From Syntrophorhabdus sp. PtaB.Bin047 (GTDB lineage: Bacteria; Desulfobacterota; Syntrophorhabdia; Syntrophorhabdales; Syntrophorhabdaceae), in assembly GCA_002067235.1 (NCBI GenBank), contig MVQP01000006.1, forward strand, positions 70-64,069: a DNA stretch of 64,000 nucleotides, given 5' to 3'. The notes beneath the pieces are model-generated. The model had not been told where the DNA came from, did not search any database, and was given only the letters and a program-made list of their open reading frames with translations. Made by a program: the position numbers and the translations under genes. Shown here in pieces: positions 35,488-39,777 of this stretch (positions are counted from its first letter, which is position 1; every line of letters starts with the position of its first letter).

Positions 35488-36966
35488 ATGGAAGACGTTA
35501 TGATGATCAGATTCACTCCGGCGGATATAGATCAGTTCAAGGAGCTGAGCGGGGACGTGAACCCTCTTCACACCGATGAGATTTACGCCAGAAAGACCCC
35601 GTTCGGTGAGAGGGTTGTCTACGGTATACTGGTGCTGCTGCGCGCGATGACGGTCCTGAAGGGGAGGACGATCTTCCTGAAAAAGCTCAAGGTCGATTTT
35701 GTCCGCGCCGCCTTCCCTGATGTCCCGTATTTCGTGAAGGTTTCTGAGGAAGGCGCGGATAAGATAGTGCTGAGAGTATTTGACGGGACGATAAACGTGC
35801 TGAAAGCCGACCTATCCATAGAGATAGGACCCTTGCATGTCCCGGGTGCCTCCGCTGCCGGACAGGTTCAGACCCTGAGGGAGCCGAGGGCCCCGACACT
35901 TGAGGAGATGGGCGGCAATTACTCTTTTTCGGGCCAGTACGGCATGTCCATGCGTCCCGGACGATTGACGGAAGAGCTCAGGTCGCTGGATTGGCTCGGT
36001 GTCTGGCAGCTGGCTGTGATAGTGGGTTCCAGCTATGTTGTTGGAATGGATGTTCCGGGACGGCAAGCGTTGTTTGTCGGAATGGATCTGGAATTCCACC
36101 ATGCGTACCCTGCACGGGGTGTTCTGGAGTACGAAGGGAGTGTCAGGAGGGCCGACGAACGCGTCGGGCTGGTGGAATTCGACTGCAGATACGCAGTACA
36201 GGGGGAGCCCGTAGCCTCCGGAAGGTACAAGACATTCATGCGCCCCGATCGCCGGGTAGATAGCGAGGCTGACTCCGGGGCCGAGGTCCGGGAGATCATG
36301 AAGGGAAGGACCGTGGCGGTGATTGGAGGAAGCAGGGGTATAGGGGCCAGGGTTGCGGAGAGCATGGCCAGACACGGGGCAAACACGATCGTCTGCTATC
36401 AGAAATGCAGCGACGACGCGATGTTTCTCAAAAACAGGTATCCCGGCAGGATCACACTGATGCAGGGTGACGTTTCGAGTATGCCGTGGTGCATGGACCT
36501 GGCCCGCGGGTATCCGGCACTGGACGGGATCGTTCTTTGCGCTTCCCCGGCGATCAAACCGCTGAGATTCGATGTTCACACCGTCGACAGGGTGAGCGAA
36601 TTCATCGAAAGGAGCGTAAGTTTGGTGGCGACGCCCCTTGCGGCATGCATATCCGCCCTGAGCGGGTCGGGAGGAAAATGCATCGTCATGTCCTCAGATG
36701 TCGTGAACCGGCCCTTCGTGGACTGGCCGCACTATGTAGCCGCAAAGTGCGCCATAGAAGGGTTTATCAGAACGGTGAGGCTGCAGTATCCTTCGGTGGA
36801 GTATCACATCCTGCGCCCCCGCAAGGTCCTTACAGACCTGATAAACACCAATATGGGGCGCATCGGCGCGATATCACCGGATCTCATCGCGAAGAAGATA
36901 ACGGAGATCTTCCTGGACGATACACGTTCAGACCACGTCAATATAATCGAGGACTTTGAAGGCTAG
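35488..36966 (+). CDS. MaoC/hotdog-fold dehydratase-like domain(s) fused to a short-chain dehydrogenase/reductase
   Basis: 'FKELSGDVNPLHTD' (MaoC motif). C-terminal SDR 'VAVIGGSRGIGARV' and 'YVAAKCAIEG' (YxxxK). Start at ATG 35488; the upstream 89 codons of the tracked ORF are rejected. Confidence 0.75.
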   Translation: MEDVMMIRFTPADIDQFKELSGDVNPLHTDEIYARKTPFGERVVYGILVLLRAMTVLKGRTIFLKKLKVDFVRAAFPDVPYFVKVSEEGADKIVLRVFDGTINVLKADLSIEIGPLHVPGASAAGQVQTLREPRAPTLEEMGGNYSFSGQYGMSMRPGRLTEELRSLDWLGVWQLAVIVGSSYVVGMDVPGRQALFVGMDLEFHHAYPARGVLEYEGSVRRADERVGLVEFDCRYAVQGEPVASGRYKTFMRPDRRVDSEADSGAEVREIMKGRTVAVIGGSRGIGARVAESMARHGANTIVCYQKCSDDAMFLKNRYPGRITLMQGDVSSMPWCMDLARGYPALDGIVLCASPAIKPLRFDVHTVDRVSEFIERSVSLVATPLAACISALSGSGGKCIVMSSDVVNRPFVDWPHYVAAKCAIEGFIRTVRLQYPSVEYHILRPRKVLTDLINTNMGRIGAISPDLIAKKITEIFLDDTRSDHVNIIEDFEG

Positions 36967-37065
36967 ATCGTTCGACCGAGCCTCAAGAGGCGACGACGGA
37001 GACATGAAACACCCGCTCACACTCTTATTGACACAGCCCAGATCAGAGAAAAGGAGGATTCGATC

Positions 37066-38778
37066 ATGAACATTCTGCTCACGGGCACCGGGAACCTTCT
37101 TGAGGGTTCCGCGGTCTGGTCCCCCCTGAAGCCGCACACGCTGGAGCATACCGACCTCAACATGTGGACCCGGGTATTTATGTCTCCCGACGACCTTGAT
37201 CCAAAGACAGATATGATAGTCTGGGTGGTCAGCCTGGAGGAATTGATAGCAAGATCAGCCTCTTTCAAGTGTAATGACGCGGGGAGCGGCAGCGACAGCG
37301 TGGAATCGGAGATCACTCTTCAACTGAATCCCCTGAGAACCTTCCTGGGGGTATCGCGGAAGACCCGGGTTGTCGTGGCATGGTCCTGGAACGAGGCTTA
37401 TTCATCCATCCAGTATTCCCGGAGTGTTCCATTCCTTGAACGGGCGGACAGGATCTGGGAGTCCCAATTGAGGGAACTCCAGGCGGACCACGAAAACCTG
37501 TTCCTTCTGCCGCTACGTCCGCATTTCGCCCGCGAGGGCCTGGCGAAATGCTACGATGTACGGAACTACTATGTCGGCTACTGCCGCTTTTCGTTTAAGG
37601 GTCTCAAGATGATAGCCGATGTCATCTCGAATCTCGTCTACCGGTTCGAGCAGGCCCCCAAAAAGGTCCTTGTCCTCGACTGCGATAATACGCTGTGGGG
37701 CGGGGTTATTGGTGAAGACGGCCTGCAGGGCATCGTACTGGGAGAAGACGGCGTCGGAAGGGCCTACAAGGATTTTCAGAAGGGCATTCGGGAACTGGCG
37801 GAACAGGGCATCCTGGTCGCACTGAGTTCGAAGAACAACGAAGATGACGTGTGGGAGGTCTTTGACAAGCATCCGGAAATGCTCCTTAAGCGGAGCGACA
37901 TAGTGGCCCACAGGATCAACTGGCAGGAAAAGGCGAACGGAATTCAGGAGATCGCCGAGGAACTCGGCCTCGGTATCGACAGCTTTGTGTTCTGGGACGA
38001 CAATCATCTGGAGCGCGAAAAAGTCAGGGTCGTCCTGCCTGAGGTCACCGTGCCTGACGTCTCCGACGAAGTGTTTGACTGGTACACTACCCTGCTGGGG
38101 ATGAAAGAGTTCCACAAGTTTGTGGTCACGGAGGAGGACAGGAAAAAGGTTTCGCAGTATCGGAGCAGGGCGATGTTCCACACGGAGAAAAAGACGGCCA
38201 CGGATCTCAGCGGATTCATGCGTTCACTGGAGCTCGAGCCTTCGCTGTTGCCGATCTCGCCGCCGCTGCTGGCCAGATGTGAACAGCTTTGCGTAAAGAC
38301 GAATCAGTTCAATCTGAGTCTGCGCCGGTACGACGCGGCTACGATCTCGAAGCTGTCCGCGGACCCCGACTGCCTGGTCTATCTCGGGCACATGAAAGAC
38401 CGGTTTGGCGACCACGGCAACGTGAGTCTGGTGATCGTCAGGGAATACGCGGAAAACAAACTGGCCTTTATCGACACGTTCCTGATGAGCTGCCGCATCC
38501 TGGGGAGACATTTCGAGGCGTGGCTCCTCGAACAGCTGCGCAGGATGGTGGTCACGAAGGCCATCAGGTATCTTGTCGCTGAGTATATACCGGCGGCCCG
38601 GAACCAGATGGTACTGGATTTTTTCAGGGCCTATGGTTTTTCGGAAGTGAACGGGGACGCCGAGATCAACGGCAAGCCTTTGCGGGAGCTGAAGACAACC
38701 CCCGAAAGCAGGCTCTATCAGCTTGATCTGGAAATCGCAAAAATACCTAACCTGGAGCACTTTAGAGATGAAGATTGA
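37066..38778 (+). CDS. FkbH-like protein (HAD-IIIC phosphatase + C-terminal acyl-loading domain)
   Basis: 570 aa. HAD motif I 'VLVLDCDNTLWGGVIGEDG', 'SSKNNEDD', 'FWDDN', C-terminal 'FLMSCRILGR'. Confidence 0.85.
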   Translation: MNILLTGTGNLLEGSAVWSPLKPHTLEHTDLNMWTRVFMSPDDLDPKTDMIVWVVSLEELIARSASFKCNDAGSGSDSVESEITLQLNPLRTFLGVSRKTRVVVAWSWNEAYSSIQYSRSVPFLERADRIWESQLRELQADHENLFLLPLRPHFAREGLAKCYDVRNYYVGYCRFSFKGLKMIADVISNLVYRFEQAPKKVLVLDCDNTLWGGVIGEDGLQGIVLGEDGVGRAYKDFQKGIRELAEQGILVALSSKNNEDDVWEVFDKHPEMLLKRSDIVAHRINWQEKANGIQEIAEELGLGIDSFVFWDDNHLEREKVRVVLPEVTVPDVSDEVFDWYTTLLGMKEFHKFVVTEEDRKKVSQYRSRAMFHTEKKTATDLSGFMRSLELEPSLLPISPPLLARCEQLCVKTNQFNLSLRRYDAATISKLSADPDCLVYLGHMKDRFGDHGNVSLVIVREYAENKLAFIDTFLMSCRILGRHFEAWLLEQLRRMVVTKAIRYLVAEYIPAARNQMVLDFFRAYGFSEVNGDAEINGKPLRELKTTPESRLYQLDLEIAKIPNLEHFRDED

Positions 38779-38998
38779 ATTGTTGCTGAGACAGTTGTTT
38801 CCCGATGCCGAGTTCGATCCCGAAGACCCTATGCTTGAAATGGGATCCTTCCCTGAATGGGATTCCCTGGGGAATCTAAACCTCCTGATGTTGATCGAGG
38901 AAACCTGCGACGTCAGGTTTACGGCTGATGACATGGCGGAATTGAAATCCATGAAGGCGATCAAGGCAAGGCTGGCGGAGTTGGGAGTTCAGGCTTGA
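38768..38998 (+). CDS. acyl carrier protein
   Basis: 76 aa with 'EWDSLGNLNLLMLIEE' phosphopantetheine Ser motif. Start overlaps the FkbH stop by 11 nt. Confidence 0.8.
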   Translation: MKIELLLRQLFPDAEFDPEDPMLEMGSFPEWDSLGNLNLLMLIEETCDVRFTADDMAELKSMKAIKARLAELGVQA

Positions 38999-39777
38999 CA
39001 AACACGGTAAAGGAAGAACTGAAGCGGTCGACCGGCCTGTGCCTTAAGGCCCTGGGGATCAAGCCTGGAGACGCGGTTTACCTGCACAGCGATGCCATCG
39101 TTGTGGGTCAGTTCCCGGGGCAGGGGAACTCCGGCGGCATCAATGCGTTCCTTGACGGCATCGAGGAGTATCTGGGAGAGGAAGGAACGCTCATCGTTCC
39201 AACCTTTACGTACAGCTTTACGAAAGACGAGATATACGATGTGCTCAGGACACCAAGCACAGTCGGCCTCATTACGGAAGTATTCAGGAACAGGCCGGGC
39301 GTGTCCCGCTCTCCGGAACCCATTTTCAGCGTGGCGGCCTGCGGCCGGGACAAAGAACTGTACGCGGGTTGTGATCCCCATGAATGCATGGGGCATGGAT
39401 CGACCTTCGAGATGCTTCACAGGAACTCCAGCTGGATCGTGGGGATGGGTTGTCCCTTCAACAGGGCGACCTTCGTGCATTACGTCGAGAAAACACTCGG
39501 AGTCTCATACCGGTACGAGAAGGTATTCAAGGGGCGGAGGATACTGGTCGATGGCACGATGCAGGACTGGCAGATAAGCTACTATGTGAGGGACCTGTTC
39601 AGAAGGAGTGACATCGAACTCAAGAGACTGCAGGCGGTCATGACGGATGATGGCACCTTCAGGAAGAACCCTCTTAAGAGGGTCATGACCTGGGCGGCTA
39701 GGTGTACGGATATTTATGACACGGCCAGGACCCTGATACTTCAGAAAGAGAACAGTCTGATCGAAGAGGGCAATTGA
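38995..39777 (+). CDS. AAC(3)/Antibiotic_NAT-family N-acyltransferase homologue
   Basis: 260 aa with TTG start in a TTGA overlap with the ACP stop. 'VYLHSD', 'GTLIVPTFTYSF', 'VGLITEVFR' resemble aminoglycoside 3-N-acetyltransferases. Confidence 0.65.
   Translation: MTNTVKEELKRSTGLCLKALGIKPGDAVYLHSDAIVVGQFPGQGNSGGINAFLDGIEEYLGEEGTLIVPTFTYSFTKDEIYDVLRTPSTVGLITEVFRNRPGVSRSPEPIFSVAACGRDKELYAGCDPHECMGHGSTFEMLHRNSSWIVGMGCPFNRATFVHYVEKTLGVSYRYEKVFKGRRILVDGTMQDWQISYYVRDLFRRSDIELKRLQAVMTDDGTFRKNPLKRVMTWAARCTDIYDTARTLILQKENSLIEEGN

Follow-up and report, generated by a model that had tools for sequence, protein, structure and literature searches.

Organization of the cassette

The window, i.e. the whole stretch of DNA that was analysed, is 64 kb of the uncultured Syntrophorhabdus sp. 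PtaB.Bin047. A co-directional glycan cluster runs from ~28 kb to past 62 kb of it, and inside this cluster four consecutive plus-strand genes encode a MaoC/short-chain dehydrogenase/reductase (SDR) fusion, an FkbH-like protein, an acyl carrier protein (ACP) and a protein of the aminoglycoside 3-N-acetyltransferase (AAC(3))/Antibiotic_NAT fold. These genes are described here as a candidate module for the N-acylation of a surface sugar. They had been noted in a preliminary description made from the sequence alone, and their positions, their motifs and both of the gene overlaps reported in it were borne out by the open reading frames (ORFs) and domain matches. The check by hidden Markov models that it had proposed bore out the FkbH, MaoC, adh_short and Antibiotic_NAT domains; the ACP was recognized through a family profile instead.

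The MaoC/SDR fusion (35488-36966, plus strand, 492 aa) matches Pfam MaoC_dehydratas (E 4e-11) and adh_short (E 6e-16) and contains the sequences GGSRGIG and YVAAK together with the hydratase-2 motif SGDVNPLH. Its longest ORF opens at 35221, yet the upstream gene ends at 35414; the length of 492 aa agrees with a 100%-identical database protein (P0241) and with the gene call of the Joint Genome Institute (JGI). The FkbH-like protein (37066-38778, plus strand, 570 aa) consists of an N-terminal domain, a HAD-IIIC phosphatase domain and a C-terminal acyl-transfer domain. It scores 267 bits with NCBIfam TIGR01686 (cutoff 146.65) and 65 bits with the HAD-IIIC model TIGR01681 (cutoff 35.75), contains the HAD motif LVLDCDNTLWGG and the C-terminal LMSCRILGR, and is 100% identical to A4E60_00438 of Syntrophorhabdus sp. 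PtaB.Bin047, in which the MaoC/SDR fusion has a 100%-identical counterpart too. Residues D205/D207/T209 (HAD motif I, DxDxT), S255, K289, D311-D312, KTNQFN and S475-C476-R477 are kept in all 15 proteins of an alignment that takes in NRPS-linked (nonribosomal peptide synthetase) and MBOAT-linked members, so that the catalytic residues, the loss of which the preliminary description would have counted against its reading, are present. The conserved C-terminal cysteine (C476) presumably corresponds to the glyceryl-S-enzyme site of OzmB.

The ACP gene (38768-38998, plus strand, 76 aa) starts with an ATG 11 nt past GGAG and overlaps the end of the FkbH gene (stop codon at 38776-38778). As a single sequence the protein, which contains EWDSLGNL, reaches 17.4 bits with Pfam PP-binding, under the cutoff of 20.8; a profile of 32 members of its family matches solved ACPs (2LML, E 9e-13; DltC, 4e-10; Escherichia coli ACP, 6e-8). 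The serine of the DS motif is invariant in 77 of 77 relatives, and Ser33 is the predicted site of phosphopantetheine attachment. The AAC(3)-like gene (38995-39777, plus strand, 260 aa) starts with the TTG of a TTGA overlap with the ACP stop codon, 8 nt past GGGAG, and the length of its product agrees with that of a 92%-identical homologue of 260 aa. The protein matches Pfam PF02522 (Antibiotic_NAT) with 121 bits. Its family profile matches FrbF (PDB entry 3SMA) and AAC(3)-IVa (PDB entry 6MN3), and H162 and E165 of a His-x-x-Glu motif (TFVHYVE) are invariant in the family. Judged from these overlaps, the FkbH/ACP and ACP/AAC(3)-like pairs are predicted to be translationally coupled.

Survey of homologous loci

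GTDB genomes were searched with a profile built from 24 AAC(3)-like homologues, and 80 species-level loci were recovered. Flanking regions were translated into six-frame ORFs and searched with the window proteins and with an iterated ACP profile. Some neighbour counts were taken over 83 AAC(3)-like loci and others over the 80 species-level loci, as given with each count; 'full flanks' marks the 42 loci in which the sequence extends 5 kb or more beyond the AAC(3)-like gene on each side. L numbers designate homologous loci that were compared with the window. The 80 loci span Campylobacter (C. jejuni included), Acidobacteria, Alpha-, Beta- and Gammaproteobacteria, Legionella, Lachnospiraceae, Planctomycetes, Chloroflexi, bacteria of the candidate phyla radiation (CPR) and DPANN archaea.

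The whole cluster is syntenic in a second Syntrophorhabdus metagenome-assembled genome and in a JGI metagenome contig, where the AAC(3)-like protein is 92% identical, and the order FkbH-ACP-AAC(3)-like recurs across phyla; because of both, the arrangement of the cassette is not due to chance. In 67 of the 80 loci an ACP gene is no farther than 10 kb from the AAC(3)-like gene (directly upstream in 38); an ACP gene is found in 37 of the 42 loci with full flanks, and the two genes commonly overlap. Two kinds of acyl loader occur, FkbH (24-28 loci) and an AMP-binding, adenylating ligase of ~496 aa (34 loci), and among the surveyed loci only C. jejuni has both. AAC(3)-like sequences nearest to that of the window accompany FkbH and more distant ones accompany the ligase. 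A dedicated phosphopantetheinyl transferase (PPTase) is present in ten loci.

NeuB is encoded in 25-28 loci, a PseB-type dehydratase in 20 and a CMP-transferase in 23; further frequent neighbours are DegT, methyltransferases, a cyclase, an HMGL-like protein, a VOC/glyoxalase protein, FabH and B12-radical S-adenosylmethionine (SAM) proteins. The methyltransferases of related modules comprise a 230-aa enzyme (21 loci), a TylF-type enzyme (seven loci) and, in Campylobacter, the Cj1300 type. No polyketide synthase (PKS) or NRPS was found among the ten largest flanking ORFs of the 80 loci, which encode proteases, kinases, ATPases, a ligase and similar proteins. Likewise, the window holds no ORF of more than about 720 aa, the largest being of about 716 aa, and so no modular PKS or NRPS. 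The cassette is thus conserved, widespread and tied to sugar rather than polyketide pathways, in line with the neighbourhood survey that the preliminary description had suggested and with its remark that a PKS or NRPS is lacking here.

Look-ups anchored on FkbH gave the order FkbH-ACP-AAC(3)-like-(VOC)-DUF4910 in three of four cases, the fourth being a deletion chimera. In Sulfuricystis multivorans the module stands among flagellin, Maf, PseB/C and NeuB genes. The module was also seen in five CPR/Patescibacteria loci (L021, L031, L041, L044 and L053) and three DPANN loci (L020, L033 and L049). The CPR loci form a compact PseB-DegT-PPTase-FkbH-ACP-AAC(3)-like-DUF4910-NeuB cluster without a GNAT-type PseH or PseG; L031 differs from the others in having no PseB, DegT or NeuB gene. 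Archaeal L033, the sole archaeal locus with FkbH, has FkbH, PPTase, ACP and AAC(3)-like genes, with DUF4910 not found in it, and L020 and L049 have AAC(3)-like, DUF4910 and ACP genes without FkbH.

The DUF4910 partner

The preliminary description was correct as to its four genes but left out a fifth conserved partner. Directly before the MaoC/SDR gene, at 34116-35414 on the plus strand, lies the gene of an M28-peptidase-like protein (DUF4910/DUF2172/HTH_47) of the Cj1295/CA_C2195 family. It matches Pfam PF16254 with 269 bits, and PF09940 and PF16221 are also matched (three scores of 269, 122 and 47 bits); it is orthologous to CA_C2195 of known structure (PDB entry 3K9T; E 2.5e-105). A DUF4910 gene lies no more than 10 kb from the AAC(3)-like homologue in 64 of 83 loci and is kept in 39 of the 42 with full flanks. 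The residues H84, C129, C180-H181-P182, E218, D290-E291, H318 and D322 (window numbering) are invariant in the alignment and look like a conserved, non-canonical active site.

The AAC(3)-like and DUF4910 proteins are fused in single ORFs at L038 (9956-12136) and L048 (8130-10274), both full-length, and in a shorter form at L075 (7205-9046). The L038 ORF encodes 726 aa, with the AAC(3)-like part at residues 14-249 and the DUF4910 part at residues 299-717. Such gene structures imply that the two proteins would cooperate physically. Apparent ACP-AAC(3)-like fusion proteins were rejected, the N-terminal extensions in L057 and L062 being artefacts of ORF calling that overlap the ACP gene in another frame.

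A second survey was anchored on DUF4910 in metagenome contigs (80 loci, L091-L170). It recovered an AAC(3)-like gene in eight of the 80 loci and an ACP gene in three. The commonest neighbours were NAD-dependent epimerase/dehydratases (30), sugar C-methyltransferases (25) and RmlC-like 3,5-epimerases (23, of which 19 directly upstream). DUF4910 genes at 40-59% identity to that of the window lie mostly in sets of the order RmlC-like epimerase, DUF4910, SDR/epimerase and sugar C-methyltransferase, and no amine or acyl genes were found in the RmlC-like epimerase/DUF4910 sets of these loci. Because most DUF4910 genes sit in sets of this kind, the general function of the family appears not to be N-acyl exchange, and DUF4910 is better described, as far as gene context goes, as a broader accessory of modified-sugar pathways. 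A role as the partner of the ACP, or as a general N-deacetylase or user of acyl-ACP, was dropped on the same counts.

To test which protein is the partner of the ACP, loci were pooled if 3 kb or more of sequence flanked the anchor on each side. An ACP gene was present in 41 of 45 loci with both AAC(3)-like and DUF4910 genes, in one of 22 with DUF4910 alone and in two of four with the AAC(3)-like gene alone (Fisher p = 2e-12, with loci treated as independent). On the contrast between 41/45 and 1/22, the carrier protein belongs with the AAC(3)-like enzyme rather than with DUF4910. FkbH-ACP-AAC(3)-like genes without DUF4910 occur in L043 and L033.

The deletion chimera found from FkbH is at L085 (8001-9902; P0177). 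It encodes 633 aa, an N-terminal part of FkbH joined to a C-terminal part of DUF4910, and adjoins a TylF-type methyltransferase gene beside the dnaA/dnaN region; a deletion has probably reduced the module to this remnant.

The MaoC/SDR fusion and the acyl group

The MaoC/SDR family is small (~22 full-length members). Residues S21/D23/N25/P26/H28 of the hydratase-2 motif and the SDR triad S402/Y416/K420 are invariant in it. An AlphaFold (AF2) model of the window protein (predicted local distance difference test 87, predicted template-modelling score 0.80) has two hotdog halves followed by the SDR domain; a Foldseek search with this model returned generic SDR structures only. Homologues adjoin FkbH and ACP genes in four settings, namely the cluster of the window, L087 (an FkbH-ACP-AAC(3)-like-DUF4910 locus), L088 and L089. 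The trio of FkbH, ACP and MaoC/SDR lies within an MBOAT/glycosyltransferase cluster in L088 (7001-13172) and within an NRPS cluster in L089 (4916-8500), as would suit a portable unit that provides C3 acyl-ACP to acyltransferases of several kinds. A 614-aa gene beside a MaoC/SDR homologue in L090 was considered as a further FkbH and ruled out (16% identity, misaligned).

Dehydratase-ketoreductase (DH-KR) bifunctional proteins turn glyceryl-S-ACP into lactyl-S-ACP in the biosynthesis of FR901464 and lankacidin (review, PMC4765723). By analogy, the MaoC/SDR protein is predicted to be a double-hotdog dehydratase fused to an SDR ketoreductase that would convert glyceryl-ACP to pyruvoyl-ACP and then to lactyl-ACP. 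This assignment replaces the earlier view of the protein as a generic oxidation or tailoring step, since the fusion recurs beside FkbH and ACP. As a dehydratase-ketoreductase stands beside FkbH and ACP here, as in those two pathways, the acyl group in the window is more likely lactyl (2-hydroxypropanoyl), possibly O-methylated, than glyceryl or hydroxymalonyl; the preliminary description had favoured a glyceryl unit or its oxidized or O-methylated derivative. Most other FkbH-type modules are without the fusion and have VOC and methyltransferase genes in its place, a content that fits the di-O-methylglyceroyl group of C. jejuni.

The FR901464 and lankacidin routes share with the window an FkbH domain with HAD and Cys motifs, a dedicated ACP and a bifunctional dehydratase-ketoreductase, the likeness of the last being judged from architecture and gene neighbours. 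They differ in that the window has, as its dehydratase, a stand-alone double hotdog of the MaoC type joined to an SDR. Compared with the FkbH/OzmB polyketide pathways (methoxymalonyl-ACP, tetronates), the window is without a PKS or NRPS receiver and without FkbG/I/K-type enzymes, and the predicted acceptor is a sugar amine reached via an enzyme of the Antibiotic_NAT fold.

Proposed mechanism

In the mechanism that we propose, FkbH would take a glycolytic C3 unit (1,3-bisphosphoglycerate in the characterized FkbH/OzmB enzymes), dephosphorylate it via the HAD domain (D205/D207) and, as family membership and the conserved residues suggest, load glyceryl onto Ser33 of the ACP through Cys476. The MaoC/SDR protein would then dehydrate glyceryl-ACP to pyruvoyl-ACP and reduce this to lactyl-ACP, again by analogy, and further tailoring of the acyl product may come from the methyltransferase and the radical SAM enzyme encoded nearby. 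Finally, the AAC(3)-like enzyme may use its His162/Glu165 pair to pass the acyl group from the ACP to a free amine, an assignment that draws on gene context. As acceptor, the adjacent DegT, PseG-like and NeuB genes would provide a nucleotide-linked amino sugar or a nonulosonic acid. In this scheme the step that usually depends on acetyl-CoA would be taken over by the AAC(3)-like enzyme, with DUF4910 possibly working alongside it.

LpxD is an acyl-ACP-dependent sugar N-acyltransferase, and the PseH and LegH steps depend on acetyl-CoA. These enzymes follow the logic proposed here, with a thioester as donor for the acylation of the amino group of a nucleotide sugar. Their folds (left-handed β-helix or GNAT) are unrelated to Antibiotic_NAT, and the predicted donor in the window is a dedicated ACP with a short hydroxy-acyl group, not a fatty acyl or acetyl group. 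The AAC(3) N-acetyltransferases and FrbF (6MN3 and 3SMA) share the fold family and the conserved His-x-x-Glu motif with the window protein. They differ from it in their donor, which is acetyl-CoA and not the predicted acyl-ACP, and the window protein falls under the AAC(3) equivalog cutoffs and is linked, by its gene neighbourhood, to sugar genes and a carrier protein.

Comparison with Campylobacter jejuni and previous work

Parts of this neighbourhood have been described before. Cj1295 (DUF4910) is genetically required for 5-N-(2,3-di-O-methylglyceroyl)-pseudaminic acid in C. jejuni (Hitchen et al., 2010). Das et al. (2014; PMC4000134) solved CA_C2195 of Clostridium acetobutylicum (3K9T), argued that the peptidase site is not conserved in the DUF4910 protein and suggested transacylation; their table of neighbours lists Maf, 'aminosugar N-acetyltransferase', acpA, 'N-acetyltransferase + HAD phosphatase' and NeuB. 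The HAD protein was not recognized as FkbH in that work and no ACP-to-amine route was proposed, and the window adds the DH-KR fusion to the neighbourhood of CA_C2195. Sacher et al. (2020; PMC7099621) named cj1302 as an fkbH-domain gene, and C. jejuni strains without cj1302 or cj1301 gave no dimethylglyceroyl ions (PMC7099621). A study of Tannerella forsythia from 2017 described the basis of N-glyceroyl substitution as unknown and called the genetic and biochemical origin of non-acetyl N-acyl groups 'a major challenge', and reviews of 2025-26 still give no mechanism for such groups. Papers on Shewanella sfm and on the Aeromonas flagellar glycosylation island (FGI) concern different gene sets.

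In the literature searched, no description of the ACP-dependent acylation of a nonulosonic acid was found. FkbH literature in pseudaminic acid (Pse), legionaminic acid (Leg), O-antigen or flagellin contexts was limited to a passing mention of cj1302, and the remaining FkbH papers found deal with PKS or NRPS. No account of the biochemistry of the route was met with in that literature either, but the module is less new than the preliminary description supposed: the neighbourhood was tabulated in 2014 (PMC4000134), Cj1295 was tied to di-O-methylglyceroyl-Pse in 2010 and cj1302 was named as an fkbH-domain gene in 2020.

The Cj1295-Cj1304 region of C. jejuni NCTC 11168 holds the same kinds of genes as the window, i.e. 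DUF4910 (Cj1295), AAC(3)-like (Cj1296/7), ACP, SAM methyltransferase and FkbH (Cj1302), beside PseB/PseC; Cj1298 is LegH. Where C. jejuni has a VOC-family protein, FabH2 and a second ACP, the window has the MaoC/SDR fusion and a radical SAM/SPASM protein. The window is without flagellin, Maf, PseB and PseH genes and has a Wzx flippase; given the flippase and the lack of flagellin and Maf genes, the target would be a surface polysaccharide or the glycan of a glycoprotein.

Assessment of the mechanism and its alternatives

The likeliest reading of the cassette, though one that we regard as evenly poised, is a carrier-protein-dependent N-acylation module within a surface-glycan cluster, in which the AAC(3)-like enzyme would transfer the ACP-bound acyl group, here of lactyl type, to a sugar amine. 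That this enzyme takes its acyl group from the adjacent ACP, as the preliminary description had it, is supported by the ACP gene in 67/80 loci and by the contrast between 41/45 and 1/22, and is challenged by C. jejuni. Several observations weigh against it. The AAC(3)-like gene cj1296/7 of strain 11168 is in frame only at G10 and is at G8 (OFF) in both of the variants of Hitchen et al. (2010). It was ON in 3.6% of reads from laboratory culture and in 75.5% after mouse passage, and was 'consistently OFF' in a 2026 study. Di-O-methylglyceroyl-Pse is nevertheless abundant in 11168 whenever Cj1295 is ON, so that the AAC(3)-like enzyme is unlikely to be essential for the transfer there. These phase-variation data conflict with the model; either another enzyme performs the transfer in C. 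jejuni, or the AAC(3)-like protein acylates another position or uses a second ACP/FabH branch. In addition, four loci with full flanks (L005, L010, L060 and L115) have AAC(3)-like and DUF4910 genes without an ACP or a loader, every characterized Antibiotic_NAT enzyme among the PDB matches uses acetyl-CoA on small molecules, and no PPTase, PseB or PseH is encoded in the window. It is the C. jejuni phase data and the four loci without an ACP that keep our confidence in the central transfer step no higher.

The same observations lend some weight to an account in which the AAC(3)-like protein is an ordinary acetyl- or acyl-CoA-dependent N-acetyltransferase that replaces PseH/LegH, while a DUF4910 transacylase or an unrecognized enzyme installs the acyl group derived from FkbH and ACP. 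C. jejuni 11168 makes its dimethylglyceroyl-Pse with cj1296/7 OFF, yet needs Cj1295; DUF4910 has invariant Cys and His residues (C129, C180-H181 and H318), and transacylation is what Das et al. (PMC4000134) proposed for it. All solved relatives of the AAC(3)-like protein use acetyl-CoA, some AAC(3)-like/DUF4910 pairs stand without an ACP, and in the compact CPR loci, which have PseB, DegT, NeuB and CMP-transferase genes but no GNAT-type PseH, the AAC(3)-like protein could take the vacant slot. We nevertheless consider this account rather unlikely. An ACP is as rare beside DUF4910 without the AAC(3)-like gene (1/22) as it is common where that gene is present (41/45), DUF4910 genes have, for the most part, RmlC-like epimerases and sugar C-methyltransferases as neighbours and lack amine or acyl genes nearby, L043 and L033 have FkbH-ACP-AAC(3)-like genes without DUF4910, and overlaps of the ACP and AAC(3)-like genes are frequent.

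Less probable still is that the acyl-ACP made by FkbH, ACP and MaoC/SDR serves some other acceptor (O-acylation of a polysaccharide, a lipid or a small metabolite) and that the AAC(3)-like gene is adjacent only through sharing the glycan cluster. The same trio feeds an MBOAT in L088 and NRPS condensation domains in L089, and L123 has FkbH-ACP in a polysaccharide cluster without an AAC(3)-like gene. The window, however, encodes no MBOAT or NRPS, its one hexapeptide acyltransferase (49203-49874) lies ~10 kb downstream of the cassette in a separate block, and neither the start-stop overlap of the ACP and AAC(3)-like genes nor the FkbH-ACP-AAC(3)-like order that recurs across phyla is easily accounted for unless the genes are linked in function. 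A last possibility, that the AAC(3)-like gene serves aminoglycoside resistance and came to lie in the cluster by chance, would agree with the Pfam Antibiotic_NAT match and with the automated annotation 'aminoglycoside 3-N-acetyltransferase'; we give it almost no credence. With the NCBIfam AAC(3) resistance models the protein reaches 17-58 bits where 270-675 are required (best, 58 against 270), so that it appears to share the fold but not the membership of the resistance family; its gene is translationally coupled to that of the ACP, and homologues lie in sugar-biosynthesis clusters across 80 species.

If carrier-protein-dependent transfer by the AAC(3)-like enzyme is accepted, an ACP/AAC(3)-like/DUF4910 core fed by FkbH or by an adenylating ligase could form a swappable system that diversifies the N-acyl groups of sugars. 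We would extend this, tentatively and with the balance tipped slightly to the negative, to the proposal that Antibiotic_NAT proteins outside the resistance clade are widespread, unrecognized ACP-dependent amino-sugar N-acyltransferases with FkbH or ligase loaders, and that they lie behind much of the so far unexplained variety of N-acyl groups on Pse and Leg. This proposal spans Proteobacteria, Campylobacter, Firmicutes, Acidobacteria, Planctomycetes, CPR bacteria and DPANN archaea, with FkbH serving for C3 units derived from glycolysis and the ligase for other acids. It takes in the N-glyceroyl groups of C. jejuni, T. forsythia and Vibrio vulnificus, to which Syntrophorhabdus would add a dehydratase-reductase leading to a lactyl-type N-acyl sugar.

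Non-acetyl N-acyl groups on Pse and Leg shape antigenicity, phage binding and host recognition. The module offers a concrete route (FkbH to ACP, an optional DH-KR step and an Antibiotic_NAT-fold transferase) that could be reconstituted in vitro. If it is correct, FkbH chemistry reaches beyond polyketides, the AAC(3) fold gains a physiological role that uses a carrier protein, and N-acyl groups would become predictable from genomes by the type of loader (FkbH or ligase), for example in the pathogens C. jejuni and Legionella.

The surrounding glycan cluster and the acceptor sugar

As previously noted, the cassette lies between a NeuB-type gene set and a flippase gene, with two radical SAM genes (39792 and 45384) in the region; three SAM methyltransferase genes (41050, 50673 and 58109) were found in the window where two had been reported nearby. 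The upstream set (28441-34123, plus strand) encodes, by Pfam, an Fe-dependent alcohol dehydrogenase (Fe-ADH), a DegT aminotransferase, an NTP-transferase/PseG-like fusion, a cytidylyltransferase and a NeuB-type synthase, and it probably supplies the acceptor. Its NCBIfam scores (PseC 218, PseG 124, NeuB 315 and PseI 228 bits) are all under the equivalog cutoffs. A full PseB,C,H,G,I,F or LegB,C,H,G,I,F set is not present in the window, and when the window was searched by tblastn for PseB, AMP-ligase, Maf, flagellin and PPTase, no match was obtained. No acetyltransferase gene lies within or adjoining the 28441-34123 set: the sole GNAT noted (25361-25810) is outside the cluster, and the hexapeptide transferase is ~15 kb past the sugar set. 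The link to nonulosonic-acid genes that had been proposed thus stands, but with no PseB or PseH homologue and with NeuB-, PseC- and PseG-like proteins under their equivalog cutoffs (the synthase under both NeuB and PseI), the acceptor is not established as Pse or Leg; it is best described from its genes as a putative ulosonic-acid-type (nonulosonic or related) sugar on a flippase-exported glycan.

At the head of the cluster, the gene of the Fe-dependent alcohol dehydrogenase is directly upstream of that of the DegT aminotransferase (28441-30707). The pair recalls KdnB/KdnA, which make 8-amino-Kdo (8-amino-3-deoxy-D-manno-octulosonic acid) in Shewanella, and in the absence of a 4,6-dehydratase the free amine could come from it.

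Downstream of the cassette follow, also on the plus strand, a radical SAM/SPASM protein (39792-41018; Pfam Radical_SAM and SPASM) and a SAM-dependent methyltransferase (41050-41781; Pfam Methyltransf_25/31/11). The former is a possible tailoring enzyme outside the conserved core, with homologues in seven of 83 loci and synteny in close relatives only, and the latter a possible O-methylase of the acyl hydroxyl. The genes at 41688-48411 (plus strand) encode, by Pfam, a LIC12162-family transferase (TIGR04331, 278 bits; cutoff 225), a carbamoyltransferase, a B12-radical SAM protein and, at 46882-48411, the Wzx-type flippase. The longest ORF of the LIC12162-family transferase (GTG at 41688) overlaps the methyltransferase gene by 94 nt; since the JGI homologue has 559 aa, the true start is probably near 41784. 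The carbamoyltransferase and B12-binding radical SAM (C-methyltransferase-like) genes (43457-46871) stand between the glycosyltransferase candidate and the flippase, and suggest O-carbamoyl and C-methyl decorations on the same glycan.

Further downstream, 48446-56242 forms a second, sugar-acid or cyclitol-like block. It encodes an HpcH/HpaI aldolase, the hexapeptide acetyltransferase, a KdsB-like cytidylyltransferase (NF009905, 272 bits; cutoff 255), a methyltransferase, a Gfo/Idh/MocA oxidoreductase, an SDR, a D-2-hydroxyacid dehydrogenase and a SIS protein, and its last gene encodes an AroB-related sugar-phosphate cyclase (TIGR04425, 429 bits; cutoff 400).

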